From positions 3,857 to 67,856 of the forward strand of contig JBDRML010000001.1 of the NCBI GenBank assembly GCA_043812195.1: 64,000 bases of DNA, read 5' to 3'. The DNA is from Candidatus Woesearchaeota archaeon. Lineage in GTDB: Archaea; Nanobdellota; Nanobdellia; SCGC-AAA011-G17; PNOQ01. Made by a program: the position numbers and the translations under genes. The notes beneath the pieces are model-generated. The model had not been told where the DNA came from. It saw only the letters and a program-made list of their open reading frames with translations, and made no database searches. Position 1 is the stretch's first letter; every line of letters starts with the position of its first letter. Below, piece by piece: positions 33,301-63,652 of this stretch.

Positions 33301-33576
33301 GTTCTTTTTTCAACTAAATGTAATAGGGGCGTAGATTTTCCAGGTGAAATTTGTAATAGTATTATATTCACAAAATATCCATATCCTAATGTAAGTTCTT
33401 TATTTTGGCAAATATTAAAGAAAAGTAAGCCTGAATATTATAGTATGTTCTATAAAGATAAAGCTGAAAGAGAATTCTTGCAGAGAGTTTACAGGGGTCT
33501 TAGGTCAGAAAAAGATCATATAAACATTTTAAGCCCGGATATTAGGATTTTGAATTCCATTGGGTTGGTTAAGTGA
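30391..33576 (+). CDS. XPD/Rad3 (DinG)-like Fe-S SF2 DNA helicase, intein-containing
   Basis: Walker A GICGTGK|...|S is interrupted by an intein; 4-Cys cluster (HRC, SNC, IPC, PAC); DEAH-like IIDECDEF; C-terminal RGVDFPG helicase motif. Confidence 0.7.
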   Translation: MMDWSLFNKKEYLEPLVFSNGKSQLDVVKEVIQAIKEGHKIIFIKGICGTGKCLERDSSVFCKPNNENHFSYHKISELVGKGGDILALDRMGKITESKFKNVRNTGIKKLYKIKTRTGREIVASANHPLLTITKEGIEWLPLEKLNNYSYICLPNKISFGRELDYDNDKIKILAHLIAEGKLGDKAGSPIYFQSPSKNPEIRKDYISSLRRAFPDGEIKSYCEKDVAIVFRNMNTTKGATNKLRLFIREHGLDKKKSSQKFIPKIIFNLKKEKISLFLSRLFSCDGSIYQKKKDGQITIEYSSISKRLIQDVSLLLQRFGIQHTITSKKFKENKEYAWIICISNHNSLRKYIDEIGFVGRKQRLALKLYNKLKIHKFTNIDKVPRVIREYLKKKGYNYTELDRFLNYEKIEESRKKKSFKQIRKDKSIETPFVFNQQKIDFLRSHIKKINNYIKDDTLSFICNEDIFWDKVKSIEYIKKDETYDLEVPKNHNFIANGIIVHNSAIALNIAKEIGKTSIVVPVKPLQKQYEEDYTDKMYVLKKDGKKLKIAIIDGRNNHRCIFKSNCMADDRYIPCTIEIKEDNLNLLKEYLHQNKFVNTKGFKKLKDIRRKSIAPACPYWSPILHKDMFEQDYSIEDAEEINYQGLQNKTFTYFQREKGCKYYNQFLNYLNSDVIVFNSKKYELENLMDRKPATEIEIIDECDEFLDNLANEKKINLDRLSLVLSNVKTKDFDLKEITIEINDLVLELLNDKKISEKEIFPIKKTKIYPLLKHFTSNAGLIDLEEEETDYLYNVYQTGKSFEDYFDETYVTFYRNDRNELLVNIITVDLEKKLKEFLDKNKAFVMMSGTIHSEMILKEVFGIKDFKIIEAEVNPIGKIKKIRTKLEKCFDYQTLKQNGAREAYLDALSRAVEVAEKPVLVHVNAFKDLPSKEECLRFNISNLKTKEELMIEQNEYRRGELVKKFKDKEIEVLFSTKCNRGVDFPGEICNSIIFTKYPYPNVSSLFWQILKKSKPEYYSMFYKDKAEREFLQRVYRGLRSEKDHINILSPDIRILNSIGLVK
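30547..31896 (+). other. intein (450 aa) with LAGLIDADG homing-endonuclease domain, inserted in the helicase P-loop
   Basis: starts with Cys after GTGK, ends ...IIVHN followed by Ser; LAGLIDADG blocks ILAHLIAEGKLGD and LFLSRLFSCDGSIY. Confidence 0.8.
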
Positions 33577-33616
33577 TTTATTTTAGCGAGAGGTGTCTCG
33601 CGCTCTCTTTTAGATA
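33514..33616 (+). repeat. palindromic cassette-boundary repeat, copy 6 (long form; 5' part is the helicase 3' end)
   Basis: core TTAGCGAGAGGTGTCTCGCGCTCTCTTTTAGATAAG at 33583-33616; the upstream 60 bp is shared with copies 7, 12, 13 and 17. Confidence 0.85.
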
Positions 33617-34720: not shown

Positions 34721-34810
34721 AATTAAAAAGAAAAAAAAGAATCATTTTCTATAGCCCTAACTGTTCATAATATTGTGAGTTCCTCCTGGGGCTTCGAACA
34801 AAATTAAAAA

Positions 34811-34908
34811 GATAATATAAATATTTTAAGTCCAGATATTAGGATTTTGAATTCTATTGGATTGGTTAAGTAAGCGAAATGTGTCTAGCGCTCTCTTTTA
34901 GATAATCT
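34811..34908 (+). repeat. palindromic cassette-boundary repeat, copy 7 (long form, intergenic)
   Basis: gataatataaatattttaagtccagatattaggattttgaattctattggattggttaagtaagcgaaatgtgtctagcgctctcttttagataatc. Confidence 0.85.
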
Positions 34909-35522: not shown

Positions 35523-36881
35523 ATGATGAAAGAAGACAAACCAAAAAAGTTCGGCCTTAAATCGCCATTAAATGCTCAGTTTGAACTTACTTTTGCATGC
35601 CCCAGCCTATGTTCACATTGCTATAATTATTGGAGATATTTAGAAGAAAAAGAAATGGTCAAAATTGAAAAAGAACTTGGCCCACACCATTTTTTAAGTA
35701 TTGCAGATAAGATAGCAGAAGCAGAAATTTTTTCTATAACGCTTACTGGGGGAGAACCTTTATTAAGAAGAGATATTCTTTATGGTGTAATAGAAAGATT
35801 AAATTCTAAAAATGTTGAAACCAACATTAATTCAAATTTAATGTTAATTACGGATGAAGATTTGGCTAGAATGGAAAGCTTACAAGTAGGGGGGTTTCTC
35901 ACTTCATTCCACACATATGATGAAGAAAAATTTGATAAAATTTCTAATTTAAATGGAGCATTTAGAAAAACAATTAGAGGGATAAGTTTGGTAAGGAGAA
36001 ATAAAAGAAATCCAAGCACGAATATGGTTGTTTCTCAAATAAATAAGGGAGATGTGTACCAAACTGGAAAATTTTTATATAGCAACTTTGGAATAAAACG
36101 TTTTAGTGCTACACCTATTAATCCCTGTACAAATGCAAAAGCTCATCTTGATATGAGATTAAGCAAAGAAGAAACCATAGAAACACTAGAGGATTTAGTA
36201 AGGTTAGAGCAAGATTTAGGAATCTCTACCGAAGTTCTTGAACCAATTCCTTATTGTTTAATTTATGATAATCCAAGCTTTGAGAAGTTTATGAAAAAAA
36301 CTTGTACAGCAGGCAAATCAACAATTGCAATAGACCCCACAGCAAATGTTAGAGCATGCATACATCTAACAAAAAATTATGGTTCTTTATTAGAAGAAAG
36401 TTTAGAAGATATCTGGGGTAGAATGGCAGAGTGGAGGCAAAGTGGATATTACCCTGATGAATGCAAATCTTGTTCTGTAATAGATAAGTGCAAAGGAGCC
36501 TGTAGATCTGAAGCAGAATCTGTTTATGGAGACATAACCTCCAGACCACCCCTGATGACATCTCCTCTAGATACAAAATTAGAATCGACACACCAAAATA
36601 CAGAAATTTCACTAAAAGGATTTGATAATAGTTATTTAACTACTAATAATGTAAGATATAGGAAAGAACATGGGGGGTATATATTATTTTCACCATCAAA
36701 AAAGTATTTATTTTTAAACCAAGGAGAATTTGAAGCATTAACAGAATTAACTGAAAAACAAACATTTAAATTATCTGATCTATTACCAAATACAGATCAA
36801 AACGACCACAAAATCACCAATTTTTTAAAAAAGATGGTTGGAGCAAATATTATTGTTCCTAAGGAGGAAAAAATAAAATGA
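35523..36881 (+). CDS. radical SAM/SPASM-domain peptide-maturase-like enzyme
   Basis: CPSLCSHC (CxxxCxxC) near the N-terminus; C-terminal Cys-rich SPASM-like region (CKSCSVIDKCKGAC). Confidence 0.8.
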   Translation: MMKEDKPKKFGLKSPLNAQFELTFACPSLCSHCYNYWRYLEEKEMVKIEKELGPHHFLSIADKIAEAEIFSITLTGGEPLLRRDILYGVIERLNSKNVETNINSNLMLITDEDLARMESLQVGGFLTSFHTYDEEKFDKISNLNGAFRKTIRGISLVRRNKRNPSTNMVVSQINKGDVYQTGKFLYSNFGIKRFSATPINPCTNAKAHLDMRLSKEETIETLEDLVRLEQDLGISTEVLEPIPYCLIYDNPSFEKFMKKTCTAGKSTIAIDPTANVRACIHLTKNYGSLLEESLEDIWGRMAEWRQSGYYPDECKSCSVIDKCKGACRSEAESVYGDITSRPPLMTSPLDTKLESTHQNTEISLKGFDNSYLTTNNVRYRKEHGGYILFSPSKKYLFLNQGEFEALTELTEKQTFKLSDLLPNTDQNDHKITNFLKKMVGANIIVPKEEKIK

Positions 36882-37099
36882 TACAAGATTTAAAGGAAGT
36901 CATTGCAAACAGTTCAAAAAAGACAGAAAGATTACAAATTATGACTACAAGCGGAGACTTAAAATTAAGTTTATACCAAAAATTATCTAAGACCAATGAC
37001 ATTGAAGGAGCCTACTCAGTTGATTCGTGCACATGTGATTGTGTCTGCGATGGAGACTGTGAAGTGTGTGATTGCGATACCTGTTACACAAGATACTAA
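36878..37099 (+). CDS. Cys-rich precursor peptide (RiPP-like)
   Basis: ATGA overlap with the rSAM gene; leader with conserved SKTNDIEG; core DSCTCDCVCDGDCEVCDCDTCYTRY. Confidence 0.6.
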   Translation: MIQDLKEVIANSSKKTERLQIMTTSGDLKLSLYQKLSKTNDIEGAYSVDSCTCDCVCDGDCEVCDCDTCYTRY

Positions 37100-37113: not shown

Positions 37114-37809
37114 ATGAGCAATAAAAAAGTATATTTTGAAAAAAGCAGAGAAAAAGAAGAAAGAAATTATTATATGATGGCTAATTTTAAATGTGGCCCT
37201 ATTTCTCGTGGTAATTTTTTTGATGAAGAATTTACTAAAAAAATAAAAAATAAAAAATTCGAAGACGTAAGAGATATAATAAAACAAAAAATAAAAAAAG
37301 ATTACGAATCGCTGACATTCGATTTAGATGGGTTTCTTAGAAATGCTAAAAAAGAATGGAGCAAGGTCGAAGAAGAATATCTTAAAAAATTAGAAAAGAT
37401 TATGCAAAAGCCATTTTTAGCCAACAAAGTAATTTGCTACTCAACAATTCTCCCAAGATGCAATTATTGGTATAAACTGCCTTGTCCATGGTTTAAGCTT
37501 AGTATCCTCTATCCTAAAAAAAAATGGAACCAGGTGTGTATGCACGAAATAATGCATTTTATGTTCCATTGGCACTACTGGGATTCCTGTAGAAAACATT
37601 TAAATGAAGAGAAAACTTGGCACTTAAAAGAAGCATTAACATTTATACTCAATGAAGAATTTTCAGATTTATTAAAAGAAAAAGATATTGGATATCCTCC
37701 ACATCAAGAATTAAGAAAGAAATTACTTAAGATTTGGAAAAAAGATAAGGATTTTAAAAGTTTTTTAGATAAAAGTATCAAAGTTATGAAAATGTGGAAA
37801 ATTGAGTAA
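37114..37809 (+). CDS. HExxH-motif protein (putative metallopeptidase)
   Basis: HEIMHFMFHWH; occupies the same position as the HExxH gene in the paralogous module at 44180. Confidence 0.45.
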   Translation: MSNKKVYFEKSREKEERNYYMMANFKCGPISRGNFFDEEFTKKIKNKKFEDVRDIIKQKIKKDYESLTFDLDGFLRNAKKEWSKVEEEYLKKLEKIMQKPFLANKVICYSTILPRCNYWYKLPCPWFKLSILYPKKKWNQVCMHEIMHFMFHWHYWDSCRKHLNEEKTWHLKEALTFILNEEFSDLLKEKDIGYPPHQELRKKLLKIWKKDKDFKSFLDKSIKVMKMWKIE

Positions 37810-39211: not shown

Positions 39212-39481
39212 ATGAAAAAATATACACCAATAATAAAAAATATAGTTGCAATAGTTGATTTAGAAACTAGTTTAGATTTAGAGAGCCTATCAACTCAACT
39301 AGAAAATGTTAGTGAATACAATAAAACAAAATTTCCAGGATTATGTTTAAAATCAAAAATCCCCGGATTATCTTATCTTCTATTTGAAAATGGAAAGGTT
39401 GTTTTAACAGGGGCTAAATCTGAAGAAGAATTACAACAGGGAACTGAATATATATTACACATTTTGAAGGATAATCTTTAA
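39212..39481 (+). CDS. single-repeat TBP-domain protein (half-TBP)
   Basis: IKNIVAIVDLETSLDLESLSTQL...FPGLCLKSKIPGLSYLLFENGKVVLTGAKSEEE matches one TATA-binding-protein repeat (IxNIVa..dL...ldL....FPGL..r...p.....iF.sGK.v.TGAKs.e); only 89 aa, so it is a single repeat. Confidence 0.6.
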   Translation: MKKYTPIIKNIVAIVDLETSLDLESLSTQLENVSEYNKTKFPGLCLKSKIPGLSYLLFENGKVVLTGAKSEEELQQGTEYILHILKDNL

Positions 39482-39508: not shown

Positions 39509-39596
39509 CATATAAACATTTTAAGTCCTGATATTAGAATTTTTAATTCTAAGTTGGTTAAAAGTAAGCGAGAGGTTTCTTGGGTTCTCTTAAAAA
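39509..39596 (+). repeat. palindromic cassette-boundary repeat, copy 12 (long form, right hairpin arm degenerate)
   Basis: catataaacattttaagtcctgatattagaatttttaattctaagttggttaaaagtaagcgagaggtttcttgggttctcttaaaaaaagc. Confidence 0.8.
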
Positions 39597-39743: not shown

Positions 39744-41045
39744 ATGAAGATGAATAAAAAAGAAATTTCAGAACTTATAAAAACAGGAGAAGGATATACT
39801 CTTGAATTCAAAGAAAGTTTAAGTAGTTCTATTGGAAAGACAATATGCGCTTTTGCAAATTCTTCAGGAGGAAAAATTATTTTAGGAGTTACAGATAATG
39901 GGGTTGTTAGGAGTTATAATCTAAATAACGCTGACCGTTCAAAAATTGAAAATATTGTAAGGAATATGGATCCTTCATTTCGAGTAAATATAGAACAGGT
40001 TTCAGATTTAGTTGTGATTTATGTTCCTGAAGGTAAAGAGAAACCTTACGCCATAAACGGGCATTTTTATTTAAGGCAAGGAGCAAATTCACAACAATTA
40101 AGGCGGGATGAAATTAGATCATTATTCCAGAGAGAGAATTTAATTAGATTTGATCGTAAAGCCAATCAAGAATTTGATATGAAAGAAGATTTTGATAAGA
40201 AAAAATTCAAATCATTCATTACCAAAACTGGGATTGACAGTTCTTTGCCTAAACAACATATCTTAAAGAATTTAGGTTTAATTACTGAAAATAAGCTTAA
40301 TAATACAGGAGTTTTATTTTTTTCACATCGCATTTCTAAGTTTTTCTTAAATTCTGTCATCACCTGTGTGTTATATAGCGGGAGAACAAAAACAAAGATT
40401 TTGGATAAAAAAGAATTTGATGCAGATTTTGTTTCTAACTTCAATAATGCCGTCATTTTTGCATTAAAAACACTTAAAACAGAATATGTTATTGAAAAAG
40501 TTGAAAGGGAAGAAAAACATGAAATCCCTGAAAAAGTTTTGCGTGAATTAATAATCAATGCAATGATTCACAGAAATTATTTTTCAGAAGGCCGTATTTT
40601 AATTGAGATTTATGCAGATAGAATTGAAATTACTAATCCAGGAGAGCTATTATTTAAGAAAAGTGATTTGGGGAAAAGAAGCCTTGCCAGAAATCCTCTT
40701 TTAGTTGATTTAGTTCACAGGCTGCAATTTGTGGAAAAAATAGGCTCAGGTATTAAAAGAGTCAAAGAATTAATGGGGAGTAAAATTAAATTTGATATAG
40801 ATTCTGACTGGTTTGGAGTGATTATTAAGAGAAATGACACTGTAAATGACACTGTAAATGACACTGTAAAAATCATTTTATCTGAATTAAGAATTAATCC
40901 TAATATTACTTATGATGAACTAGGAAAGAAAATTGGTAAAAGCAGGAGCACAATTATTCGTCATATTGACAAACTAAAAGAAAAGGGTATTGTAAAGAGA
41001 ATTGGCTCAGATAAAGGAGGACATTGGGAAGTGGTTGGAAAATGA
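39744..41045 (+). CDS. AlbA_2 (Schlafen-like) + HATPase_c_4 + wHTH putative regulator (COG2865-like)
   Basis: N-terminal LEFKESL...ICAFANSSGGKIILGV (AlbA_2); mid NAMIHRNY; C-terminal HTH; contains a 9-bp x3 tandem repeat. Confidence 0.65.
   Translation: MKMNKKEISELIKTGEGYTLEFKESLSSSIGKTICAFANSSGGKIILGVTDNGVVRSYNLNNADRSKIENIVRNMDPSFRVNIEQVSDLVVIYVPEGKEKPYAINGHFYLRQGANSQQLRRDEIRSLFQRENLIRFDRKANQEFDMKEDFDKKKFKSFITKTGIDSSLPKQHILKNLGLITENKLNNTGVLFFSHRISKFFLNSVITCVLYSGRTKTKILDKKEFDADFVSNFNNAVIFALKTLKTEYVIEKVEREEKHEIPEKVLRELIINAMIHRNYFSEGRILIEIYADRIEITNPGELLFKKSDLGKRSLARNPLLVDLVHRLQFVEKIGSGIKRVKELMGSKIKFDIDSDWFGVIIKRNDTVNDTVNDTVKIILSELRINPNITYDELGKKIGKSRSTIIRHIDKLKEKGIVKRIGSDKGGHWEVVGK
40833..40868 (+). 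repeat. tandem 9-bp repeat AATGACACTGTA x3 (encodes NDTV x3)
   Basis: read directly from the sequence. Confidence 0.8.
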
Positions 41046-41102: not shown

Positions 41103-41675
41103 ATGAAAAAGAAAAGGCAAAAACCATGGGAAACAAAATTAATTGAAAAAATTATTGATGTTACTGGTTATTGTTTTCCTGGAGCGGAAGAAGAAGCATT
41201 GAAGCAGTTTAACAAAGTAAAAGCTAAAGAAATTTCTGTAATGCGAACTAAAGTAGATTTTGATCGTGGTTTTCAAACATGGTTTTTATTAAAATATTTA
41301 ATCGAAGAAAAATTTACACCAATGGAAGTTATTTCTGGAAACCCGTCAAATTATTTTACAAAAAGAGAATTGCAAATGGTTGATAACTTTCTCAATAATA
41401 AAGAGGGCTTTTATGAAATAATATCCATCTCAAGAGACAAAAAAGACTTTACCATAAAGAATGTTATGAATAGCGAGATTATTTCTGTAAAAACAATTGA
41501 TTTTCCCAACAAATTAAGTAAAGGAGAACATATTTATACAATTCCTGTGCAAAAGCTTGATGGAAACTATTTCTTTTACGGCAATGTAACATGTTATTCA
41601 AAAGAGAATTGTGTAGATATTGTAAATCTTACAAAGATAGAAAAAGCACATAGGTTAAGTTTATATGAGAGATGA
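41103..41675 (+). CDS. hypothetical protein
   Basis: ORF track. Confidence 0.4.
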   Translation: MKKKRQKPWETKLIEKIIDVTGYCFPGAEEEALKQFNKVKAKEISVMRTKVDFDRGFQTWFLLKYLIEEKFTPMEVISGNPSNYFTKRELQMVDNFLNNKEGFYEIISISRDKKDFTIKNVMNSEIISVKTIDFPNKLSKGEHIYTIPVQKLDGNYFFYGNVTCYSKENCVDIVNLTKIEKAHRLSLYER

Positions 41676-41985
41676 ATTAGTCAAAAAATTTAAAGATAAG
41701 GAAATTGAAGTTCTTTTTTCAACTAAATGTAATAGGGGTGTAGATTTTCCAGGTGAAATTTGTAATAGTATTATATTCACAAAATATCCATATCCTAATG
41801 TAAGTTCTTTATTTTGGCAGATATTAAAGAAAAGTAAGCCTGAATATTATAGTATGTTCTATAAAGATAAAGCTGAAAGAGAATTCTTGCAAAGAGTTTA
41901 TAGAGGTCTTAGGTCAGAAAAAGATCATATAAATATTTTAAGTCCAGATATTAGGATTTTGAATTCCATTGGGTTGGTTAAGTAA
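41665..41985 (+). pseudogene. duplicated 3' fragment (106 codons) of the XPD-like helicase gene
   Basis: translation is identical to the last 104 aa of 30391..33576; nucleotide near-identity with 33259-33576; followed by repeat copy 13. Confidence 0.75.
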
Positions 41986-42015
41986 GCGAGAGGTTTCTCG
42001 CGCTCTCTTAATTAA
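41983..42015 (+). repeat. palindromic cassette-boundary repeat, copy 13
   Basis: GTAAGCGAGAGGTTTCTCGCGCTCTCTTAATTA. Confidence 0.85.
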
Positions 42016-42622
42016 AATAACCTTCATACTGTTCTAAATGTTCAAAGAACTTTTTAGCATATACCTCGCAATTTGGTTGCAATTGGGCATCAAGATCTCC
42101 ATGGCACCCAAAATTTGCATATGCATTTCCATATATTTTATCATATTCAATAATTTTCTTTATAGTATTGGGAGGAACTATTAAAGGAATTCCTTCGTTT
42201 TGATAGTATTCTACAGAATGAGGAGGCATCATATTAATTTCTGAATAATTATACCAAACTTCAAAATCTCCTAAATTTTCAACTTTGCCCCTTTTCTTCA
42301 CTTTTTCAGTTTCTTGATAATATAGATTATCTTTATTAAAAACCAAAACAGTAGCCACGATTCCAGCATAATAAAAAGTATTCTCATTTGTAATGTTCCT
42401 ATTTTTATCCTCAGCAATCAGCATAGAATAATATCCCCATTCATCACCTTCCAGTCCTGCCCCTCCTACTTCTGAATTAGGAATATACCCTTCAGGAAGT
42501 TCGGTATTAACAAAACTTAAAAATAAATTATTATCCTTTTCTATATCAAGTTTAGAAAACTTACATCCTGAAATAGGCAAGATAATTAAAATAATTAAAA
42601 TAAATAATAACTTCTTTTTCAT
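42008..42622 (-). CDS. lipoprotein
   Basis: lipobox ISGC; the gene is inverted relative to the repeats. Confidence 0.5.
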   Translation of the reverse strand: MKKKLLFILIILIILPISGCKFSKLDIEKDNNLFLSFVNTELPEGYIPNSEVGGAGLEGDEWGYYSMLIAEDKNRNITNENTFYYAGIVATVLVFNKDNLYYQETEKVKKRGKVENLGDFEVWYNYSEINMMPPHSVEYYQNEGIPLIVPPNTIKKIIEYDKIYGNAYANFGCHGDLDAQLQPNCEVYAKKFFEHLEQYEGYFN

Positions 42623-42666: not shown

Positions 42667-42700
42667 CTTAGCGAGAGCTTCTCCCGCGCTCTCTTTAGTA
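42667..42700 (+). repeat. palindromic cassette-boundary repeat, copy 14
   Basis: TTAGCGAGAGCTTCTCCCGCGCTCTCTTTAGTAA. Confidence 0.8.
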
Positions 42701-42762
42701 AAAAACCTAAAAAAACCCAAAATTAGTTCCTTTTATATATTTTTCTAATATTTCTATTTTAG

Positions 42763-44025
42763 ATGAAAATACTAAAAAGCCCTATTTCAGTTCACTATGA
42801 ATTAACTGAAAATTGCAATCATCGTTGCGAACATTGTTATAATCCCTTTGCGCATATTTCTGAAGAAGTTCCAAAATTAACAAGAGATAGAATAATAGAA
42901 GAATTAGTACAAAATGAAGTATTTCATGTTATCCTTACTGGAGGAGAACCATTATTTTATCAAGATATGGCTGTAGATGCTGTAAAAAGATTAAATAAAA
43001 ATGGAGCTGTTGTTTCTTTAAATTCAAATTTAACTTTAATGGATAGAAATACTGCAGTCTCACTTAAAAAAGCAGGTCTAAAAAGTGCCCTAACTAGCAT
43101 AACTCACTATGATCCAAATATTCATGATAAAATTACTAAAATAGATGGAAGTTTAGAAAGATGTATTTCTGGAATTAATTATCTTGTAAATCAAGAAATA
43201 CCTGTCTCAGTAAATATGGTCGTAACAAAAGACAGAGTTGACGATGTTTACAAAACAGGAGAAATGTTAGTAGATTTAGGTATTACAGGTTTTTCAGCAA
43301 CAAGAATGGCGCCAAACAGAGATAATCTAAAAGAAATTTTAGATGCTCAAGAAGTAAAACATATGTTAGATCAATTATTATTATTAAAAGAAAAATACGG
43401 CATTAATGTTTCAAGCTTAAACAATCTTCCAAGATGTTTTAGTTCTGACAAAAAATATGGGATATTTATGAATAGATCTTGTAATGGTGGAAGAACAAGT
43501 GCAACAATAACTCAGATAGGTGGATTAAAATCTTGTCATCATTTAGATGAAGTTGTTGGAAATATAATAGAGGAAGGATTATCAACAGTTTGGGAAAAGG
43601 CTCCAGTATTAAAAGATGAAAGATTGCCAAAAGGATGTTTAGCATGTGATGTAAATGAAAACTGTGCAGGAGGCTGTAGACAAACTGCAGAAGTTGTTAG
43701 AAACAAAAAAACAGGCCTAGATCCAATTGCAAGAGGAAAAGAACAAATAATAACCTTAGATCCACCAGAACTGCCAAATAAAGATAGCACATTAAGATTT
43801 ATGAAAGATACATTATATAGAAAAGAAAAAAATGGAGGGGTTTTATTTAGAAATCCAAGAAATTATGCAATATTAAATGAATCACAATATCAGTTAGCTT
43901 TAAAACTGTCAAACAACTCTTTTTCAATAAATGAATTGAAAGATTTATTTGGAAATGAATTAAGTTCCTTTATGGAAAGATTATACCAAAAAGGTTTAAT
44001 AGGGGAGGCAAAATGGAAAAATTAG
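42763..44025 (+). CDS. radical SAM/SPASM-domain peptide-maturase-like enzyme (paralog of 35523..36881)
   Basis: CNHRCEHC (CxxxCxxC); C-terminal CLACDVNENCAGGC SPASM-like. Confidence 0.8.
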   Translation: MKILKSPISVHYELTENCNHRCEHCYNPFAHISEEVPKLTRDRIIEELVQNEVFHVILTGGEPLFYQDMAVDAVKRLNKNGAVVSLNSNLTLMDRNTAVSLKKAGLKSALTSITHYDPNIHDKITKIDGSLERCISGINYLVNQEIPVSVNMVVTKDRVDDVYKTGEMLVDLGITGFSATRMAPNRDNLKEILDAQEVKHMLDQLLLLKEKYGINVSSLNNLPRCFSSDKKYGIFMNRSCNGGRTSATITQIGGLKSCHHLDEVVGNIIEEGLSTVWEKAPVLKDERLPKGCLACDVNENCAGGCRQTAEVVRNKKTGLDPIARGKEQIITLDPPELPNKDSTLRFMKDTLYRKEKNGGVLFRNPRNYAILNESQYQLALKLSNNSFSINELKDLFGNELSSFMERLYQKGLIGEAKWKN

Positions 44026-44177
44026 TTACTAACGAAAAAAGAATTGACTTAAAATATGAGCCAGCAGGCAAGTTAGCAGAGATTAAAGAATTGACTTCAA
44101 AAGCAAATGTAATAGAAGAATTAAATTATTTAAGAACAATAGATTACGATTGTGATGACGGAAATTGTAGTGATTAA
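44013..44177 (+). CDS. precursor peptide (54 aa) with C-terminal DYDCDDGNCSD
   Basis: start overlaps the rSAM stop; leader SKANVIEELNYLRTIDYDC is similar to SKTNDIEGAYSVDSC of the 36878 peptide. Confidence 0.55.
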   Translation: MEKLVTNEKRIDLKYEPAGKLAEIKELTSKANVIEELNYLRTIDYDCDDGNCSD

Positions 44178-44179
44178 AT

Positions 44180-44767
44180 ATGATTTATAACTTAAATGAA
44201 GTAAATGAAAAAGAACTAAAAGAGTTCTTAGATACCTCATTAGAAGAACTAAAAGAGTTTTACAAATTAGGGGAATTTCAAACTCCTAATTTATTTATTT
44301 TAAAAGATAGAAAAACTATAGATCAATTAAAAGGGAAAAAAACAGAGGATTGGTTAGTTGGTTGGTCTGTCCCAGAGCTTAATTCAATTTTTGTTCTAGA
44401 AAAATCTAAATTCGGAACAGAAAGCAAAAAAGTATACAGCGATAATATGTACAATAAATTACTGAAACATGAATTAGTTCATATTATATATCATAAAATT
44501 TCTAAAAATAGAAAACCAGTTTGGCTTAGTGAAGGTATAGCAATTTATCTTTCAGGCCAATATCTTAAAAAAACTAGACCAGAAAAATTCAAAAATTTCC
44601 TAAATTTTTATAATGAAGGAGGATCTGAAGTTTATGAAGAAAGCGGATTTGCTGTTGAATTATTAATCAACAAATTTGGAAAAGAAAAATTATTAACTTT
44701 AATTAAATCTTTAAACGGAATAGAATCAGATAAAGAATTTTTAAAGAAATATACAAAGTTGAGCTAA
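44180..44767 (+). CDS. HExxH zinc-metallopeptidase-like protein
   Basis: HELVHIIYH; starts 3 nt after the peptide stop. Confidence 0.5.
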   Translation: MIYNLNEVNEKELKEFLDTSLEELKEFYKLGEFQTPNLFILKDRKTIDQLKGKKTEDWLVGWSVPELNSIFVLEKSKFGTESKKVYSDNMYNKLLKHELVHIIYHKISKNRKPVWLSEGIAIYLSGQYLKKTRPEKFKNFLNFYNEGGSEVYEESGFAVELLINKFGKEKLLTLIKSLNGIESDKEFLKKYTKLS

Positions 44768-44795: not shown

Positions 44796-44830
44796 TTAGA
44801 AAGAGAGTGCTCTCTTTAGATAGATTTTTA
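44796..44830 (+). repeat. variant cassette-boundary repeat, copy 15
   Basis: TTAGAAAGAGAGTGCTCTCTTTAGATAGATT, with palindrome GAGAG-TG-CTCTC. Confidence 0.6.
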
Positions 44831-44857: not shown

Positions 44858-45832
44858 GTGGTGAACAAAACTAGGAGGAATGATATAATGAAAAAGGGTT
44901 TGTTAGTTTTATTTTTGTTTAGTGTTTTAGTTCTTGCTTCAACATCAACTTCAGCAGCTAATTGTGGTGGTAATATTTCTTGTAATTGCGGAGATACAGT
45001 TGTTGAGGATTATGTTTTGGACAGAGACTTATTTTGCGAATCTACCTACTGGCCACCAACTTCTATAGGTTTGATGGTTGGTTCTGAAGGTATTAATATA
45101 GATTGTAATGGTCATAGTATAACTAGTGATAATAATGAACCAAACTTTAATATTGCTAATTATGCAATACACACTCTGAATAAAGATAACATAACTATAA
45201 AAAACTGCCATTTTCATTACTTTTTTTGTGGCATATATGCAAATTCTAAAAATAATTTTATCCATAACAACGAATTTAATGACTCTGCATTGGGTATTTG
45301 GACTACGGGCCCTAACAATACAATTAGAAATAATGAAATGCATCACAATTATAGAGCAATTTGGATTAATGGCAATGGTAATCTAATTTCAAACAACAAT
45401 ATATATAATAATTATCAAGGCATTTCATTCTATTCTATATCTCCACCAGGACCATTTACTAATAATACATTCTGGATTAACAGGTTTGTAAACAATGATA
45501 TTGTTGTTGATGAAGATAACACAATTGGTAATCATTGGAATAATAGTAATGTAGGAAACTTCTGGGATGATTTTGATGATAATATTGGATATCCAGATTA
45601 TTACTTGGTTCCAGGCAACGCTGGTTCTGTGGATTATCATCCAATCTGGTTCTGTAAAGAGGGAATAGAACCAGAAGTATGTTCTGAACAAACACCATTC
45701 TGTTGTAGATATGGAGAATTAGTAGCTGATTGTCAACAATGTGGCTGCCCTTCTGATAGACCAAAATGTCAAGAAAATGGACATTGCACAAAAGCAGATA
45801 AACCAACTTTGCCGTTCATTATAGCAAATTAA
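44858..45832 (+). CDS. secreted right-handed parallel beta-helix repeat protein
   Basis: signal peptide; repeated NNxxxNN/IxNN blocks (NNEFND..IRNNEMHHN..ISNNNIYNN). Confidence 0.6.
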   Translation: MVNKTRRNDIMKKGLLVLFLFSVLVLASTSTSAANCGGNISCNCGDTVVEDYVLDRDLFCESTYWPPTSIGLMVGSEGINIDCNGHSITSDNNEPNFNIANYAIHTLNKDNITIKNCHFHYFFCGIYANSKNNFIHNNEFNDSALGIWTTGPNNTIRNNEMHHNYRAIWINGNGNLISNNNIYNNYQGISFYSISPPGPFTNNTFWINRFVNNDIVVDEDNTIGNHWNNSNVGNFWDDFDDNIGYPDYYLVPGNAGSVDYHPIWFCKEGIEPEVCSEQTPFCCRYGELVADCQQCGCPSDRPKCQENGHCTKADKPTLPFIIAN

Positions 45833-45847: not shown

Positions 45848-46861
45848 CTATTGTTCTGGGCTAAAAACCTTCAATTGTCCACTATTGAATAAAATAGGTA
45901 ATTGTTTAAAAATCCCTCCTTGGGCATCATAACAATTACAAAGAAATCTCAACCCAGTAATGCCGTCCTCTATGGTATAATTGCTTCCTCTGCAAAAGTC
46001 TGAACATTCTTGTATTTGTTCTTCTGTTGGTTCAGATGGTTTAGCCAAATAACTACTCGCTTCAACATTCATAACTTTTCCAGTATAAATAGGAACAACT
46101 TCTGGATAATCATATCTATCAAAAAGATTAACCGAACCTATGGTTCCAGGTCCAGTAGACTCAACAAAACAATAATCAGTTTCAAAATTACCTTTATTAC
46201 ATTGAATTCCAACAGTCATATGCTCTTTTTCATCAAATAAAAATAAAGCTACACCATATCCCATTCTCTTTAAAATCTTCCCAAGTAATAAGGATTTATC
46301 AGCACACATTCCTGTATTATCATATAATGTTTCATAAGGATATCTTACAGAATACACTCTATAATTAATTGTTTCATCATAAGGTATTCTTCTAACTAAA
46401 TAAATTAAATCTCTAACGAGATTATCTCCTTCATTGCCTGTTCTTTCTTTTGCATTTTCTATAAGTTGATCTATTACATATAAATCATTATCATCTTCAA
46501 GATACATCAGCCAAATTTCTGCTTCCGCTTCTTTACTTATTTCATCTGGATAATACCAAAAATTTTGAGGAGCATCAAAAACAAAATGATTATATACACT
46601 ATGATGTAATTCTATATTAAAATAACCCAATCTTACCTTTAAATCCTCGGATATTATACTACTAGTATGTTCTACTAACTCTACAGTTTCACTTTCATTA
46701 TTATCTCCTTCTAAATTATCCACACTTATTAATTCTGTATAATCTTCTGGATCAGTATAATTTACTAAAGCTAAAGCTATCACAATAATCAAAAGAATAA
46801 CCCATGGTGTTGTATTTGGTGTTTTATTTTTTTTACTCATCTTATTTATCTTCTGTTTCAA
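45848..46861 (-). CDS. transglutaminase-like cysteine protease domain protein, N-terminal TM
   Basis: GMCADKS (Cys) ... EHMTVG (His) with a downstream Asp; spacing is transglutaminase-core-like. Confidence 0.55.
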   Translation of the reverse strand: MKQKINKMSKKNKTPNTTPWVILLIIVIALALVNYTDPEDYTELISVDNLEGDNNESETVELVEHTSSIISEDLKVRLGYFNIELHHSVYNHFVFDAPQNFWYYPDEISKEAEAEIWLMYLEDDNDLYVIDQLIENAKERTGNEGDNLVRDLIYLVRRIPYDETINYRVYSVRYPYETLYDNTGMCADKSLLLGKILKRMGYGVALFLFDEKEHMTVGIQCNKGNFETDYCFVESTGPGTIGSVNLFDRYDYPEVVPIYTGKVMNVEASSYLAKPSEPTEEQIQECSDFCRGSNYTIEDGITGLRFLCNCYDAQGGIFKQLPILFNSGQLKVFSPEQ

Positions 46862-47008: not shown

Positions 47009-47878
47009 ATGTTAGGAAGAAATCATGTTTCAATTTCATTAGCTACAATTATGCCTTTCTTAATACCTCTTATCTTTTTAGAATCAAATAATTCAATAAT
47101 ATATGGTTTTGCTTTTTTAATATCTATTCTTGTTGGATCTCTGCTACCCGACGCAGACTGTGGAGGAAAATCAAAACTCTATTACGATTTTAACATATTC
47201 TACCAATTAATTATTCCAATTACCAAATTAACTGTTTGGACATTTAAACTTTCAAGTGTTAAAAAAAAGTTGTCTACAAAGTTTTCAGAATTACAAGATG
47301 TAAATCATGAACATAGAGGGATAATGCATTCACCCATAGGAACGATAGTCAGTTCTTTTTTGTTAACTTTAATTATTCTTATCATAATGACACTTATTGC
47401 TAAAACTAATCTATTATTAGTTTTAATTATCTTTCTAGGATTAATTATTGGACAAATTCTACATTTATTAGAAGATTCCTGCACTGTTACTGGGATAAAT
47501 TGGATGTTTCCATTTGGAAAAAAAGAATTAAAAGGGCAAATATACACATTTGAGTGGAAATATCAAAATAAAAAAGATATCCGGCCGATGATTTATGTTT
47601 ATTCCCTGGTGGCTGTGTCCATTATATCCTTATTAGTAAACTCATTTGGGGCTGTGAATAATCTTTTTTTATATTATTTAATAACAACAATCGCAGTTTT
47701 GATAATTTGGATAATAATTATCAAGATATCTCAAAGTCAGTCTATTTTTTGGTATAGAGACGCCGAAAAAATAAAACAAATACAAAAAAAACAAAGAAAA
47801 GCTTTAAAAAAATTTACAGGAATAAAAAGAAAAAAACACAAAAAAAGATCATATAAACATTTTAAGTCCAGATATTAG
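47009..47878 (+). CDS. polytopic membrane protein (metal-dependent hydrolase-like?)
   Basis: 6+ TM helices; LLPDADCGG; the 3' end runs into the long-form repeat. Confidence 0.4.
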   Translation: MLGRNHVSISLATIMPFLIPLIFLESNNSIIYGFAFLISILVGSLLPDADCGGKSKLYYDFNIFYQLIIPITKLTVWTFKLSSVKKKLSTKFSELQDVNHEHRGIMHSPIGTIVSSFLLTLIILIIMTLIAKTNLLLVLIIFLGLIIGQILHLLEDSCTVTGINWMFPFGKKELKGQIYTFEWKYQNKKDIRPMIYVYSLVAVSIISLLVNSFGAVNNLFLYYLITTIAVLIIWIIIIKISQSQSIFWYRDAEKIKQIQKKQRKALKKFTGIKRKKHKKRSYKHFKSRY

Positions 47879-47940
47879 GATTTTGAATTCTATTGGGGTA
47901 GTTAAGTAAGCGAGAAGTGTCTCTCACTTTCTTTTAGAAA
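47838..47940 (+). repeat. palindromic cassette-boundary repeat, copy 17 (long form)
   Basis: gatcatataaacattttaagtccagatattaggattttgaattctattggggtagttaagtaagcgagaagtgtctctcactttcttttagaaa. Confidence 0.85.
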
Positions 47941-47979
47941 AATATTTATACACCCCAAAATAATCAAAATTATAAAAAA

Positions 47980-50289: not shown

Positions 50290-50892
50290 ATGAATAAAAA
50301 AGTACTAATCGCAACACTGTATTCACCAGAACCAGTGTTATTAGCTGCCAATAGGCTTGGCCCAGATAGATTAATACTATTAATAGATAAAAAATCTAAT
50401 AAACACCAAGAAGATTCTCTAAAAGTGATTAATAACTCTCTGGGTAGAATTATAGATGTTAAACCAATTAAAGTTGATGTTTATGACATTGTAGGGGTTG
50501 CTAAAAAGGTTGTAGAAGTCATAGATATGCAGCCTAGAGATGATAGATTATTTGTAAATGTAACCTCTGGTAGAAAAACACAAGCTCTTGGTTTGTTATT
50601 TGGAGCTTATGCTAGACATGATAGAATTAATAAAATAGCTTATAATCCTGAAGAAGATAAGAATTCTGTTGTTTATTTGCCTAGATTGTCTTTTAAGTTA
50701 AATGAGAGCCAAAAAAAGATATTAGATGTAGTTTCAGAAGTTCCAGGTGGTAATTATGCTGAATTAGCTGAAAAGGCCGGTGTTTCAAAAGCAATGTTTT
50801 ATAGGGCTACAGATGAGTTAAAAGACATGGATCTTGTATTAAATGAAGATGGTTTAAAATTAACAGATGCAGGAGAGATAGCGAGGTTGTAG
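50290..50892 (+). CDS. Rossmann-like (CARF/Csa3-like?) + C-terminal wHTH regulator
   Basis: N-terminal KVLIATLYSPEPVLLAANRLGPDRLILLI; C-terminal wHTH ILDVVSEVPGGNYAELAEKAGVSKAMFYRATDELKDMDLV. Confidence 0.4.
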   Translation: MNKKVLIATLYSPEPVLLAANRLGPDRLILLIDKKSNKHQEDSLKVINNSLGRIIDVKPIKVDVYDIVGVAKKVVEVIDMQPRDDRLFVNVTSGRKTQALGLLFGAYARHDRINKIAYNPEEDKNSVVYLPRLSFKLNESQKKILDVVSEVPGGNYAELAEKAGVSKAMFYRATDELKDMDLVLNEDGLKLTDAGEIARL

Positions 50893-50908
50893 GGGGGCTA
50901 AATTAAAA

Positions 50909-53773
50909 TTGACAAACGAAAGATTGACAAAATCACAAAGTACTGCAGTAAAATATTTTGCAAATCCTTTGGTAATTGTTGCTGGACCAGGATCTGGAAA
51001 GACAAAGGTCCTAATAAATAAAGTAAAATATCTTATTGAAAGTAAAAAAATGGAGCCTTCAAAAATAGTATTAACAACATTTACAATAAAAGCAGCAGAA
51101 GAATTAAGAAAAAAGATACAAAATTTGATAAAAACAGAAGATATTAGTTCAATGTTTATTGGGACTATTCATTCATATTGTGACAATATTATTAAACAAT
51201 ATGGCGGAACAAAAAATATTCCATTAGATTATTCAGTTCTTGATGATATTCAAAGATATATTTTTTTAAGAAAACATTTCAAAGTGCTTGGGTTGGATAA
51301 AGAAGAATTAAAATTATTAAAAAAACCTAGAAGTGATGGAGAACAAATTGGAGATGTTCTTAGATTTTATGATGAATTAACGGAGAATTTAGCAGATATT
51401 CCCGAATTATTAGAATATATCAAAGAAAATAAATCTGAGCTATTTGAGAACACCGAAGAAAAATATGATTCTGCAATCAATTTAATAAATTCCTATGAGA
51501 AATATGTTGAATTATTAAAAAAATATAAATTGATCGATTTTGCATTTCTTGAAAAAACAACTTATAATTTATTAAATGACAAAGCTATTTTAGAAAGTAT
51601 TAGAATTAAAACTGAATATGTTTTAATAGATGAGTTTCAAGATATTAATCCCCTTCAATGGAAATTATTTTCCAAAATTGTTGAAAAAGATAAAAAGATT
51701 ACCGTGGTGGGAGATAAAAACCAAAGTATTTATGGGTTTAGGGGGGCAAATCCTAATATTTTTGATAAGTTCAAAGTTGAATTTAAGGAAGCAAAACAAA
51801 TCGAACTCGATGTAAATTTTAGATCAAAGAAAAATATAATTGATTTTGGTAATGATTTTCTTTCTGGAAGAGAAACAATTAAGATAAAGGCAGATAGGGA
51901 GAATGAAAAAACAAGAATATATATGATTGATGGAGATTATGAATCTGATTCTGCAGAAAGAATATTAGAATTAATAAAAAATTTATACAAAGAGAAAAAA
52001 ATAAAAAAATATGGTGATGTAGCACTATTATTTAGAAGTGTAAAGAATCATGGTAAGAAATTTATTGAACTATTAGATAAAAAATTTCCAGGAATACCTT
52101 ACTCTGTCAGCGGCGGAACAAATTTTTTAGAAAATGAAGAAATACGTTCAACAATATTTTTTATGTCTTATCTTTATGGTATCGAGGATGAAAAAATATC
52201 TAAGACTTTAATAAGTTATGATAATTTTATTGATGCTCTCGATACAGAATTATTTAAAATATCTAAGAATACTATAAAAATATTAAAAGAAAATCCAAAT
52301 TTAGACACAAAAAATATTGCTAATGTAAATATATTAACAAAAAAAGGCATTAGTGAAAAAGATGCAATAAAAATAATTTCAATACATAAATTAAAAAATA
52401 AAAATGCTAGTAAAAAATTATCTATTGAGGAGACTTTTTACAAGTTTTTAAGTGAAACAGAATGTATAGTAGATTACAAGAAAAAAATTTCTGCAATGAC
52501 TAAAAAAATGATGTTCAATCTTGGTTATTTTTCACAATTAATACAAGACTATTCAACATATTATAAAAAAAGTAATTTCAAGGGATTTTTATATGTATTA
52601 AAAGATTTGCCGGAAAATTTGAAACTAGAAGGAGAAAATGATTCATTCATAGCAGACAATCCAGAAAATTTAAAATTAATGACTATTCATCAAGCAAAAG
52701 GACTTGAATTTCCAGTGGTTATAATCCCTTCTTTAGTTACGAGAAGATTTCCAAATAAGATGTTAACTAGAAATTTAATAGATCTTCCAGAAAAATTTAA
52801 TTTATATGAACCTTATGATAGATTAAAAGAAGAAGAAAATTTGTTTTATGTTGCAGCCACAAGAGCCCAGGATAGTTTAATTCTATCAAAATTTAAAAAC
52901 CATAGAACTACGAGGGTTAGTGCATCAGAATTTGTTGATAGAATTGAAAAAAATCTAGTCGAAATAAAAAAATTAGAAGATTATTCGGAAAAAATAAAAG
53001 AAAGAAAAATAGAAGACGAGGGATTTCATGTAATAGATTATAGCTCAATTAGCACATTTATAGACTGCCCAGAGCGTTTCAATTTGAGATATATTTATGG
53101 GTTTGTTGCTGGAGAAATTTATGTCCAAAAAATTGGAAAGATCTATCATAATGCTCTTGCAAAATTAAATTCTAATATTAAAGAGAAGAAGAAAATAGAT
53201 GATAAATTAATAAAAGAGATTTTAGATGATTCTTGGATAACTTTGAAGAAAGATGAACGTCAAGATGAGATTATGAAGAAAAAATTTCTTAGAGAAATAA
53301 AAAGATATTATCAAACAATGACTAATAATGAGTTAAAAAAAATAAAAGAAATAGAAAAACCTATTGGTTTAAATGTTGATAATATTCGCATACGTGGTAG
53401 GTTGGATCTACTTTATGAAAATGAAAATGGAGAAAATGTTTTGATGGACTTTAAATCAAGAAAATTAGATGCGATCGGTGAAACGCATGTTGATAAACAA
53501 TTAATAACATATGCAATGGCTTTGGAAAAGGAAGGTTGGAATATAAATAAATTAATTGCATATCCTATTCAAGAAAATAATTTTAAACCAGTAGAGGGAG
53601 AAATAAGTTTTGGCAATGACGATAAGAAAAAAATCAAATCATCTGTAAAAAAGTTTGTTGGTGCAGTAAAAAACGAAACATTTAATACTTCAGAAGTAAA
53701 ATCAGGATTCTGTGAAAAATGTCCCTATAAATTGATCTGTTTATATAATAAATCAAGGAGTCTAAATGATTGA
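50909..53773 (+). CDS. UvrD-family SF1 helicase fused to a Cas4/RecB-like Fe-S PD-(D/E)xK nuclease
   Basis: GPGSGKT, DEFQD, VGDKNQSIYGFRGA, TIHQAKGLEFP, ATRAQ; C-terminal DCPERF...LDLLY...MDFKSRK...QLITYAMAL and CEKCPYKLIC (Cys cluster). Confidence 0.8.
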   Translation: MTNERLTKSQSTAVKYFANPLVIVAGPGSGKTKVLINKVKYLIESKKMEPSKIVLTTFTIKAAEELRKKIQNLIKTEDISSMFIGTIHSYCDNIIKQYGGTKNIPLDYSVLDDIQRYIFLRKHFKVLGLDKEELKLLKKPRSDGEQIGDVLRFYDELTENLADIPELLEYIKENKSELFENTEEKYDSAINLINSYEKYVELLKKYKLIDFAFLEKTTYNLLNDKAILESIRIKTEYVLIDEFQDINPLQWKLFSKIVEKDKKITVVGDKNQSIYGFRGANPNIFDKFKVEFKEAKQIELDVNFRSKKNIIDFGNDFLSGRETIKIKADRENEKTRIYMIDGDYESDSAERILELIKNLYKEKKIKKYGDVALLFRSVKNHGKKFIELLDKKFPGIPYSVSGGTNFLENEEIRSTIFFMSYLYGIEDEKISKTLISYDNFIDALDTELFKISKNTIKILKENPNLDTKNIANVNILTKKGISEKDAIKIISIHKLKNKNASKKLSIEETFYKFLSETECIVDYKKKISAMTKKMMFNLGYFSQLIQDYSTYYKKSNFKGFLYVLKDLPENLKLEGENDSFIADNPENLKLMTIHQAKGLEFPVVIIPSLVTRRFPNKMLTRNLIDLPEKFNLYEPYDRLKEEENLFYVAATRAQDSLILSKFKNHRTTRVSASEFVDRIEKNLVEIKKLEDYSEKIKERKIEDEGFHVIDYSSISTFIDCPERFNLRYIYGFVAGEIYVQKIGKIYHNALAKLNSNIKEKKKIDDKLIKEILDDSWITLKKDERQDEIMKKKFLREIKRYYQTMTNNELKKIKEIEKPIGLNVDNIRIRGRLDLLYENENGENVLMDFKSRKLDAIGETHVDKQLITYAMALEKEGWNINKLIAYPIQENNFKPVEGEISFGNDDKKKIKSSVKKFVGAVKNETFNTSEVKSGFCEKCPYKLICLYNKSRSLND

Positions 53774-56675: not shown

Positions 56676-56676
56676 A

Positions 56677-63055: not shown

Positions 63056-63090
63056 TCAAAAGAGAGCGCGAGAAACCTCTCGCTTACTAA
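63056..63090 (-). repeat. palindromic cassette-boundary repeat, copy 19 (inverted orientation)
   Basis: reverse complement reads GTTAGTAAGCGAGAGGTTTCTCGCGCTCTCTTTTGA; abuts the truncated radC copy. Confidence 0.85.
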
Positions 63091-63587: not shown

Positions 63588-63652
63588 AAGAGTTTAGAAA
63601 CCTAAACCAGTTTATATAAATTTATGAGAAGAAATAGCAACTAAAAAATCAG

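Follow-up and report, generated by a model that had tools for sequence, protein, structure and literature searches.

A predicted radical SAM/SPASM peptide-modification operon with a conserved Cys/Asp precursor core in a Woesearchaeota archaeon

Among the closest described counterparts of the system considered here are the ranthipeptide maturases: PapB, QhpD and NxxcB make side-chain thioethers (reviewed in PMC8326336), and PapB, which links Cys to Asp or Glu, accepts Cys-Xn-Asp arrangements with n = 0-6 (PMC9413430). In a survey of archaea, clusters of the radical S-adenosylmethionine (rSAM) type were reported across the domain, including the DPANN superphylum, as predictions only (PMC12144867). 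In the literature searched we found no characterised peptide of the RiPP type (made by the ribosome and modified after translation) from a DPANN archaeon, and queries on DPANN with RiPP or SPASM, on PF13485 with RiPP and on Woesearchaeota with radical SAM returned nothing specific to the system. Here we analyse a 64,000-nucleotide (nt) stretch of DNA from Candidatus Woesearchaeota archaeon (GenBank assembly GCA_043812195.1, contig JBDRML010000001.1, positions 3,857 to 67,856), hereafter the window, which carries two gene trios, module 1 and module 2, each composed of an rSAM/SPASM enzyme, a small open reading frame (ORF) and an HExxH protein. We consider it likely that module 2, our main subject, is a genuine, self-contained and co-transcribed three-gene operon of the RiPP type in a Woesearchaeota (DPANN) host. 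Judging from its genes, it probably makes Cys-to-Asp thioethers of a ranthipeptide-like kind and then removes the leader. Module 2 and its boundaries comprise the following features.

42763-44025, + strand: rSAM/SPASM maturase, 420 amino acids (aa)
43780-44022, + strand: C-terminal maturase domain (about aa 340-420), strands followed by three helices, winged helix
44013-44177, + strand: precursor peptide ORF, 54 aa, C-terminal end ...YLRTIDYDCDDGNCSD and stop
44136-44174, + strand: conserved 13-residue core of the precursor, TIDYDCDDGNCSD, preceded by a leader of about aa 1-41
44180-44767, + strand: HExxH protein, 195 aa, with HELVH
42732-42739, + strand: TATA-box-like TTTATATA, read from the sequence, its centre about 27 nt upstream of the rSAM ATG
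42669-42693, + strand: AGCGAGAGcttCTCccGCGCTCTC, a degenerate copy of a 23-nt repeat that bounds the module 2 unit on its upstream side
44800-44822, + strand: inverted repeat AAAGAGAG-TG-CTCTCTTT, then TAGATAG, 3' of the last module 2 stop

The three ORFs, all on the + strand, were found exactly where a preliminary description of this DNA had placed them, and the details it gave of their junctions hold as well: the peptide ORF overlaps the maturase stop, by 13 nt, and the ATG of the HExxH gene begins 3 nt past the final base of the stop codon of the peptide ORF. A GGAGG sequence (44004-44008) stands 4 nt upstream of the ATG of the peptide ORF. We read module 2 as a real operon because its ORFs overlap or abut and because the same gene order recurs in other loci. 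TTTATATA is a candidate archaeal promoter, from which the predicted transcript would be leaderless or nearly so. At the upstream boundary, the copy at 42669-42693 aligns with perfect copies of the repeat, with a 1-nt insertion and substitutions. The element at 44800-44822 aligns with the same repeat across an internal gap of 11 nt; it looks like a deletion derivative of it, and is a candidate for both the terminator and the downstream boundary of the unit.

The module 2 peptide reads in full MEKLVTNEKRIDLKYEPAGKLAEIKELTSKANVIEELNYLRTIDYDCDDGNCSD, with DYDCDDGNCSD as its core motif. As described previously, this core has only two Cys; the whole module 2 peptide has these two and a single CD dipeptide, as against eight Cys and four CD dipeptides in the module 1 peptide. 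Orthologous small ORFs occupy the same position in the related contigs L068, L001, L002, L014, L003/L015 and others, and these have in common an N-terminus (M-E/V-K/R-L-V) and the core. Their C-termini read ...YLRTIDYDCNDGNCSD in L068, ...YLSTIDYGPGDCDDGNCSD in L001 and ...FRTIDYDCDDGNSCDCDNICDISGIGYD in L002, and are extended into longer CD-rich tails in L014 and L003/L015. A search of 5.8 billion proteins with the peptide profile returned only 11 matching clusters, every one of them with DYDC(D/N)DG, and the precursor matched no NCBIfam or Pfam model. By the Nei-Gojobori method, applied to the window, L068 and L001, the last 17 codons gave 0.05 nonsynonymous differences per site (pN) against 0.50-0.77 synonymous ones (pS), and the leader a pN of 0.31-0.46, near its pS; for the rSAM and HExxH genes the method gave dN/dS of about 0.2. 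Since position and sequence are conserved elsewhere and purifying selection is evident, we judge the small ORF to be a real gene, far beyond what a chance ORF would display. The low pN of the core beside a drifting leader likewise indicates a core that is conserved and not diversifying: to judge by these comparisons the core is strongly constrained and the leader loose, which is the reverse of a "diversifying core". The comparison of core and leader dN/dS that had been suggested at the outset thus revealed no diversification of the core within the module 2 clade. As for the encoded precursor beside a modifying enzyme by which a RiPP is recognised, at least 17 loci have a conserved small ORF under selection immediately 3' of the maturase gene.

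The module 2 maturase is a radical SAM protein by Pfam Radical_SAM (PF04055; E = 2.7e-20; 73.6 bits, cutoff 29.5) and also matches Fer4_12. Its CX3CX2C motif (C18/C22/C25, nt 42814-42837) is near-invariant across 36 family members, and the same 36 have seven invariant auxiliary Cys (C225, C240, C258, C292, C295, C301 and C305), of which C292-x2-C295-x5-C301-x3-C305 forms a CX2CX5CX3C motif. The SPASM model PF13186 gave E = 0.0046 and 17.6 bits, under its cutoff of 21.5; the module 1 maturase exceeds that cutoff with 25.1 bits and also matches TIGR04085 (42.6 against 27). The module 2 enzyme is placed among the SPASM proteins by the seven-Cys motif and by structural matches that are SPASM/Twitch enzymes, and this motif would imply two auxiliary Fe-S clusters as predicted content. 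Its AlphaFold2 (AF2) model, with a mean predicted local distance difference test (pLDDT) of 91.8, superposes on rSAM structures. The best Foldseek matches are SuiB and SkfB (E = 5.5e-17 and 1.1e-16, template modelling (TM) score about 0.6), PqqE, anSME and CteB, and PqqE is also the best sequence match among solved structures in the PDB. The nearest solved structures are all rSAM enzymes that act on peptides or proteins.

In the HExxH protein, HELVH occupies aa 97-101 (nt 44468-44482) and the third ligand is E118 in WLSEG; a set of 36 homologs shows no variation at H97, E98, H101, W115, E118 and G119. Peptidase_MA_2 (PF13485), the family on record for most homologs, scored 29.4 bits against a cutoff of 32.4. 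The profile of the peptidase could be aligned with M1 peptidases (LTA4H, aminopeptidase N) at their active site, HExxH-x18-E / WLNEG, and the best fold match of its AF2 model (pLDDT 91.6) is the peptidase domain of the collagenases ColH/ColG (TM 0.63, probability 1.00). A phmmer search of the PDB returned no match, so that the protein is placed by profile and fold search only. Its assignment to the gluzincins of clan MA follows from the HExxH motif with an invariant E118, the aligned M1 active site and the ColH/ColG fold, and we predict a compact gluzincin-type zinc metallopeptidase reduced to a bare catalytic domain. The N-terminus, as read from the sequence, has no hydrophobic segment. Given its conserved adjacency to the precursor gene, we propose that this protein may be the leader peptidase.

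The C-terminal domain of the maturase appears with high model confidence as a beta3-alpha3 winged helix (aa 344-415). DSSP assigns strands to residues 344-346, 351-355, 358-364 and 367-371 of the AF2 model, and helices to 373-382, 389-396 and 398-409. The domain profile matches winged-helix proteins in the PDB, and single members weakly match MftB (0.0029) and the N-terminus of Ocin_ThiF, a region which we take to carry a peptide-binding domain of the RiPP recognition element (RRE) kind. In L006 (labelled Gammaproteobacteria) and L007 (labelled Saccharibacteria) the enzyme is of a 350-aa type that ends after SPASM, and a separate ORF of 68-73 aa with the same sequence pattern lies just downstream of the rSAM gene. 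Because of the winged-helix fold and this occurrence as a separate small ORF, we propose that the C-terminal domain of the module 2 maturase may be a fused RRE. The same two loci (L006 386-2760, L007 159-1621) also have an upstream small ORF with basic CxCxC cores, for example CKCRCKCHTCHCECK, and in L006 an HExxH gene of the module 1 type (type B, as opposed to type A of module 2) lies on the opposite strand.

We propose the following course of events for module 2. Translation of the 54-aa peptide, for which its conservation and purifying selection provide indirect support, would come first. The N-terminal part of the peptide would then be held by the fused winged helix of the maturase, a step suggested by the fold and by the separate small ORF of the bacterial relatives. 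Next, the SAM cluster and two auxiliary Fe-S clusters would enable the abstraction of a hydrogen atom from DYDCDDGNCSD and the formation of a cross-link, most likely a thioether from Cys46 and/or Cys51 to a side-chain carbon of Asp (or Asn), given the Cys/Asp "CD" signature of the precursor family and the kind of enzyme involved. Finally, the downstream HExxH-x18-E gluzincin would trim the leader, leaving a small, highly conserved acidic peptide.

Several results weigh against this model. The maturase reaches none of the NCBIfam equivalogs: the best, GeoRSP (TIGR04303), scored 122.6 against 400, the PapB model (NF047865) 71.4 bits against 340, PqqE (TIGR02109) 71.9 against 381 and MftC (TIGR03962) 73.8 against 265, and with no curated family reached the reaction is not readable from homology. 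Pfam PqqD (PF05402) matched none of 23 C-terminal domains. Four type A peptidase homologs in bacteria of the Candidate Phyla Radiation (CPR) and in archaea have no rSAM neighbour; as the family thus also exists away from rSAM genes, peptidase and peptide are tied to each other by adjacency alone. Within the module 2 unit there is no transporter or immunity gene. Lastly, the Tyr of DYDC is invariant, and a Tyr-based cross-link might replace the thioether or accompany it.

Two further genes (44858-45832 and 45848-46861 (-)) lie next to module 2 before the next intact repeat. One encodes a 324-aa NosD/beta-helix protein with a Cys-rich tail and a hydrophobic N-terminal segment that is likely to be a signal peptide, the other a 337-aa protein without a family match. 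In L001 and L068 a different gene, for a 672-aa CBM96-type protein, is found 3' of the trio, and we therefore leave the 324-aa and 337-aa genes outside the conserved module 2 unit. A MacB-type ABC transporter (an ATPase and two MacB_PCD/FtsX permeases; 9948-13100) is encoded about 30 kb upstream of module 2, and L003 has a MacB/FtsX gene some 6 kb upstream of its trio. The transporter might serve as exporter, but nothing found here links it to the trio.

An alternative view of the product is that it is no secreted bioactive peptide and stays in the cell as a small molecule or as a cofactor-like or metal-binding peptide, comparable to pyrroloquinoline quinone (PQQ), mycofactocin or SCIFF. A near-invariant core with a drifting leader is indeed the pattern of PqqA, MftA and SCIFF and not that of diversifying antimicrobials. 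The lack of a transporter or immunity gene in the unit agrees with this view, as do the PqqE sequence match and the weak match of one C-terminal domain to MftB, and the acidic Cys/Asp core would suit metal binding. However, the PqqE and MftC cutoffs are missed by a wide margin, the module 2 peptide contains neither an E-x3-Y nor a GVY-type motif, the CD-rich cores in other clades of the family are long and highly variable, unlike a cofactor precursor, and no cofactor-using partner enzyme is encoded nearby. On balance we regard a cofactor-like product as improbable and retain the thioether-containing RiPP as the preferred reading.

The family to which module 2 belongs extends well beyond this genome. 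An exhaustive HMMER search with the module 1 enzyme retrieved 442 representatives of 50%-identity clusters at E <= 1e-30, more than 150 of which align with it nearly end to end at E < 1e-52. The maturase family is large, uncharacterised and widespread; most of its clusters come from metagenome contigs, and its hosts include DPANN archaea and CPR bacteria. For the scan of loci a 7-sequence alignment (A2) was used, the 36-sequence alignment (A1) being too diverse for it. The order rSAM gene, small ORF, HExxH gene was found in at least 17 distinct loci, in some with a second rSAM gene or a moved peptidase gene: it is the same in L001, L068, L002, L005/13/16, L014, L017, L019, L069, L070 and the P0092 locus, and rearranged in L003/15, L018/25 and L043. 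The small ORFs differ widely across the family, nearly all of them being rich in Cys with Asp as the next residue. The L019 peptide has the form (GCDx)n, that of L005 has CDDYCDCDGGVDGDTCDSGVCDIE, and other clades have long, highly variable CD-rich cores.

Some of these loci have peculiarities of their own. In L005, another Woesearchaeota contig, a 4.5-kb segment with the trio lies between direct repeats (1422-1513 and 5970-6062) of about 92 nt that are 89-93% identical, which hints that this trio, too, sits in an inserted element. The closest relatives of the module 1 enzyme (38% identity), in L069 (3001-6353) and the P0092 locus, are accompanied by a second rSAM/SPASM gene in the cluster, which is found between peptide and HExxH gene in L069 and downstream of the 212-aa gene in the P0092 locus. 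A marine clade of 470-483-aa homologs (L020-L050), without a Cys-rich peptide or an HExxH partner, was set aside as an outgroup. It is of very low GC content and keeps the C-terminal extension (for example L022 4724-7320 and L026 2475-5126). A conserved ORF of 78-100 aa (ITGRQLRMARV...W..L) is always found upstream and a protein of about 310 aa downstream, among sugar-modification-like genes, and the substrate of this clade is probably a different one.

The second trio of the window has the following features.

35523-36881, + strand: maturase of module 1, 452 aa, deeply paralogous to that of module 2
36878-37099, + strand: module 1 precursor, 73 aa, core SVDSCTCDCVCDGDCEVCDCDTCYTRY
37114-37809, + strand: module 1 HExxH protein, 231 aa, HEIMHFMFHWHYW, type B

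The preliminary description had pointed out the same three-gene order in both modules, and rightly so. Its claim that the maturases are paralogous was substantiated by alignment, at 28% identity from end to end (E = 2e-60), the homology also spanning the approximately 100 aa after SPASM. The leader motif said to be shared by the two precursors, on the other hand, did not rise above chance when they were aligned (BLASTP E = 0.086; leaders alone, p = 0.45). A local alignment of the two peptides scored 34, against 25.1 +/- 4.8 for shuffled sequences (p = 0.06), and a hidden Markov model of the module 2 peptide clade gave E = 0.15 with the module 1 peptide. What they have in common is a Cys/Asp composition with CD dipeptides, of which the module 1 peptide, with CTCDCVCDGDCEVCDCDTC, is a CD-rich example; sequence homology between them is not demonstrable. 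The two HExxH proteins align by BLASTP around the motif only (E = 0.002 over 21 residues), and a profile-profile comparison of type A with type B covered 64 active-site columns only, at 84% probability. The type B motif of the module 1 peptidase is HE[LI]xHFMFYYY, and these comparisons assign the two partners to different gluzincin families.

These distances bear on the origin of the two modules, which had been described as two diverged copies of one module, carried and diversified by the repeat array in separate cassettes. Both trios are in fact bracketed by the same 23-nt repeat, in the same orientation and about 7 kb apart, and the common gene order and the homologous maturases would also suit a duplication within the array. 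However, at 28% identity the two maturases are as distant as almost any two members of a family that comprises hundreds of 50%-identity clusters, and module 1 is as close or closer (about 31-32%) to several members from other samples, its best relatives elsewhere being 38-40% identical. The neighbour-joining tree contradicts duplication as well: module 2 nests with L001, L068, L002, L014, L005 and L015, all from other samples, in a clade in which all peptidases are of type A and the peptides, except that of L005, of the DYDCDDG type, and module 1 is found on a separate long branch. The closest relatives of module 2, L001 and L068, are 70% identical and have the same trio in loci from which the repeat is absent; in L001 the trio is flanked by housekeeping genes (beta-CASP nuclease, proteasome subunit, CCA-adding enzyme). 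If we add that the HExxH proteins belong to different families and that the peptides have no demonstrable homology, an origin of the two modules as copies bred within the array is very unlikely, and a recent in-array duplication was rejected on the maturase distances and the tree. The bracketing by repeats therefore stands, and the notion of copies diversified by the array does not, in view of the 28% identity, the separate branches, the different peptidase families and the conserved core. The two modules are old paralogs, separately inherited or acquired, that lie in one variable region, and not recent duplicates, as the separate branches, the different peptidase families and the repeat-free relatives at 70% identity indicate. 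With relatives this ancient, the array would collect peptide operons and not breed them.

It is, lastly, extremely unlikely that the rSAM enzyme acts elsewhere, as a heme/siroheme-type or anSME-like (Cys-to-formylglycine) enzyme beside an incidental small ORF: NirJ2 and AhbD do rank among its top NCBIfam matches, anSME is among the structural ones and the homolog P0007 is labelled "AdoMet-dependent heme synthase" by the JGI, but the heme-type and anSME-type scores are far under their cutoffs (NirJ2 118.2 and AhbD 103.5 bits, both against 500), the scanned neighbourhood has no heme or siroheme pathway genes and no sulfatase gene lies nearby, the small ORF is conserved, under selection and always adjacent to the maturase, and a peptide substrate would account for both the extra winged-helix domain and the peptidase.

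Returning to the surroundings of the operon, the 23-nt element AGCGAGAGGTGTCTCGCGCTCTC has about 16 + strand copies between 22555 and 48337 (26 kb), where none is expected by chance, and one - strand copy at 63062-63084. Its fold is an imperfect hairpin, about 34 nt long and with unpaired bases. Copies often begin right at a TAA stop codon, and a TATA-like box often comes after them. The element divides the region into units of 0.3-4.9 kb with up to about five genes each; of the two copies that flank module 1, the upstream one (35377) is perfect and the downstream one (37809) has one mismatch. The repeat is absent from all 70 related loci examined and from IMG/VR. The last ~65 nt of the gene for an XPD-type helicase, together with the repeat, occur in five copies in the window.

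33509-33608: helicase tail with repeat
34806-34905: helicase tail with repeat
39509-39596: helicase tail with repeat
41918-42017: helicase tail with repeat
47842-47941: helicase tail with repeat

The pattern suggests that insertion or recombination has struck the 3' end of the helicase gene repeatedly. A 300-nt duplicate (33253-33552 and 41662-41961, 96% identical) creates a 106-aa helicase-tail ORF (41665-41985), and a 289-aa YdjM-like ORF (47009-47878) ends inside a helicase-tail copy in another frame.

With one-to-five-gene units in one orientation between repeated imperfect palindromes, this variable region resembles an array of integron cassettes. It differs from one in that the core of its repeat is 23 nt, that no attC layout (R''-L''...L'-R') was identified in it by eye, and that a scan of the ORFs at 7-64 kb of the window detected neither a tyrosine recombinase nor an IntI; attC sites are typically longer than a 23-nt core or a hairpin of ~34 nt. 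A regulatory or terminator role of the repeat is equally possible, because TATA-like boxes often follow its copies. "Cassette-like units" is a fair description, and "integron" an unproven label. Archaeal integrons have been reported, mostly as attC clusters without an integrase (PMC9668308).

By its content the window is archaeal, encoding as it does a TBP repeat, a RadA-like protein and an XPD-type helicase with an intein, and its GC content is about 28%. The module 2 proteins are identical to NCBI entries from a Candidatus Woesearchaeota metagenome-assembled genome (100% for the maturase). The helicase (1061 aa, 30391-33576) has an intein with a LAGLIDADG domain, and a 383-aa LAGLIDADG-like protein (20687-21838, -) adjoins the RadA-like gene (21913-22512, -). 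An 89-aa protein with a single TBP repeat (39212-39481; PF00352, E = 3e-22) stands alone between two repeat copies. The first repeat-bounded unit is filled by the gene for a 488-aa B12-binding radical SAM protein (22635-24101), the third radical SAM gene of the variable region, with a domain content unrelated to that of both maturases. Within the array lies a gene for a Schlafen AlbA_2 / HATPase_c_4 / HTH protein (39744-41045), and defence-like genes flank it (50290-59934), among them those for a CARF-winged-helix protein, a UvrD helicase fused to a PD-(D/E)XK nuclease, a 969-aa N6/N4 DNA methylase and a 1085-aa ResIII/SNF2 helicase. Two RadC-like genes (59918-60625 (-) and 63087-63587 (-)) are 77-78% identical at the DNA level, the second apparently truncated, in a region with repeats (60123-60689 and 63082-63651); the inverted 23-nt copy adjoins the second of them.

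As to how module 2 relates to known systems, ranthipeptides (PapB/freyrasin, SCIFF/CteB, NxxcB and the related QhpD) resemble it in having an rSAM/SPASM enzyme beside a short Cys-rich precursor. Its Cys and Asp are the donor/acceptor pair of PapB and QhpD, and it has Asn beside Cys as in NxxcA. The seven auxiliary Cys, the structural match to CteB and a highly conserved core, as in SCIFF, complete the likeness. It differs from them in its PapB score (71 against 340) and in the lack of a SCIFF precursor match, so that it falls outside the family as modelled; in an RRE-like domain that is C-terminal and fused, whereas theirs is N-terminal; in CD dipeptides and DYDCDDG in place of a regular CX3D; in a gluzincin as fixed partner; in hosts that are DPANN archaea and CPR bacteria; and in a cross-link that is predicted from genes. 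In the PQQ (PqqA/D/E/F) and mycofactocin (MftA/B/C/E) pathways, too, a short conserved precursor is served by an rSAM/SPASM enzyme and a peptidase, together with a PqqD-type peptide-binding domain whose counterpart in module 2 would be the winged helix, but the scores of module 2 are far under their cutoffs, its precursor motif is another, the tailoring enzymes PqqB/C or MftD/F are missing, and their peptidase is M16 or creatininase-like where that of module 2 is a gluzincin. The maturases of streptide (SuiB) and of a sactipeptide (SkfB), leader-dependent peptide-cross-linking rSAM enzymes, are the best structural matches; yet they are 17-22% identical in sequence and carry an N-terminal RRE, their products have Lys-Trp or Cys-C-alpha links, and the NCBIfam sactipeptide models were scored far under their cutoffs by the module 2 maturase. 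For the last step, the M1-family leader peptidases of class III lanthipeptides (AplP-like) provide the precedent of a clan MA zinc peptidase that removes a RiPP leader. The module 2 peptidase has HExxH-x18-E and a WLxEG motif like M1 aminopeptidases and differs from M1 peptidases in being a bare catalytic domain of about 200 aa with no GxMEN motif evident, in a fold closest to M9 collagenase, and in belonging to a family that also occurs away from rSAM genes.

Taken together, these comparisons define a testable family, made up of an enzyme whose putative C-terminal recognition domain is unusual, a 13-residue core (TIDYDCDDGNCSD) and a dedicated small zinc peptidase. With its short core, only two Cys and an Asp end, module 2 offers a near-ideal minimal substrate for the enzyme clade: if the chemistry is PapB-like, the maturase would be a compact thioether-forming enzyme from a new lineage, and if not, a new cross-link would be at hand. 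It is conceivable, although we rate it as rather unlikely, that the family defines a new RiPP class, marked by the C-terminally fused recognition domain and an undescribed cross-link at the CD units or DYDC (for example Tyr-Cys or intra-dipeptide, in place of a PapB-type thioether), and that the operons of this genome move as integron-like, repeat-bounded cassettes without a recognisable integrase. Set against the known systems, what is new here is the clade of the enzyme, the order of its domains, the family of its precursor and the peptidase that partners it, and the logic by which they are put together is familiar.

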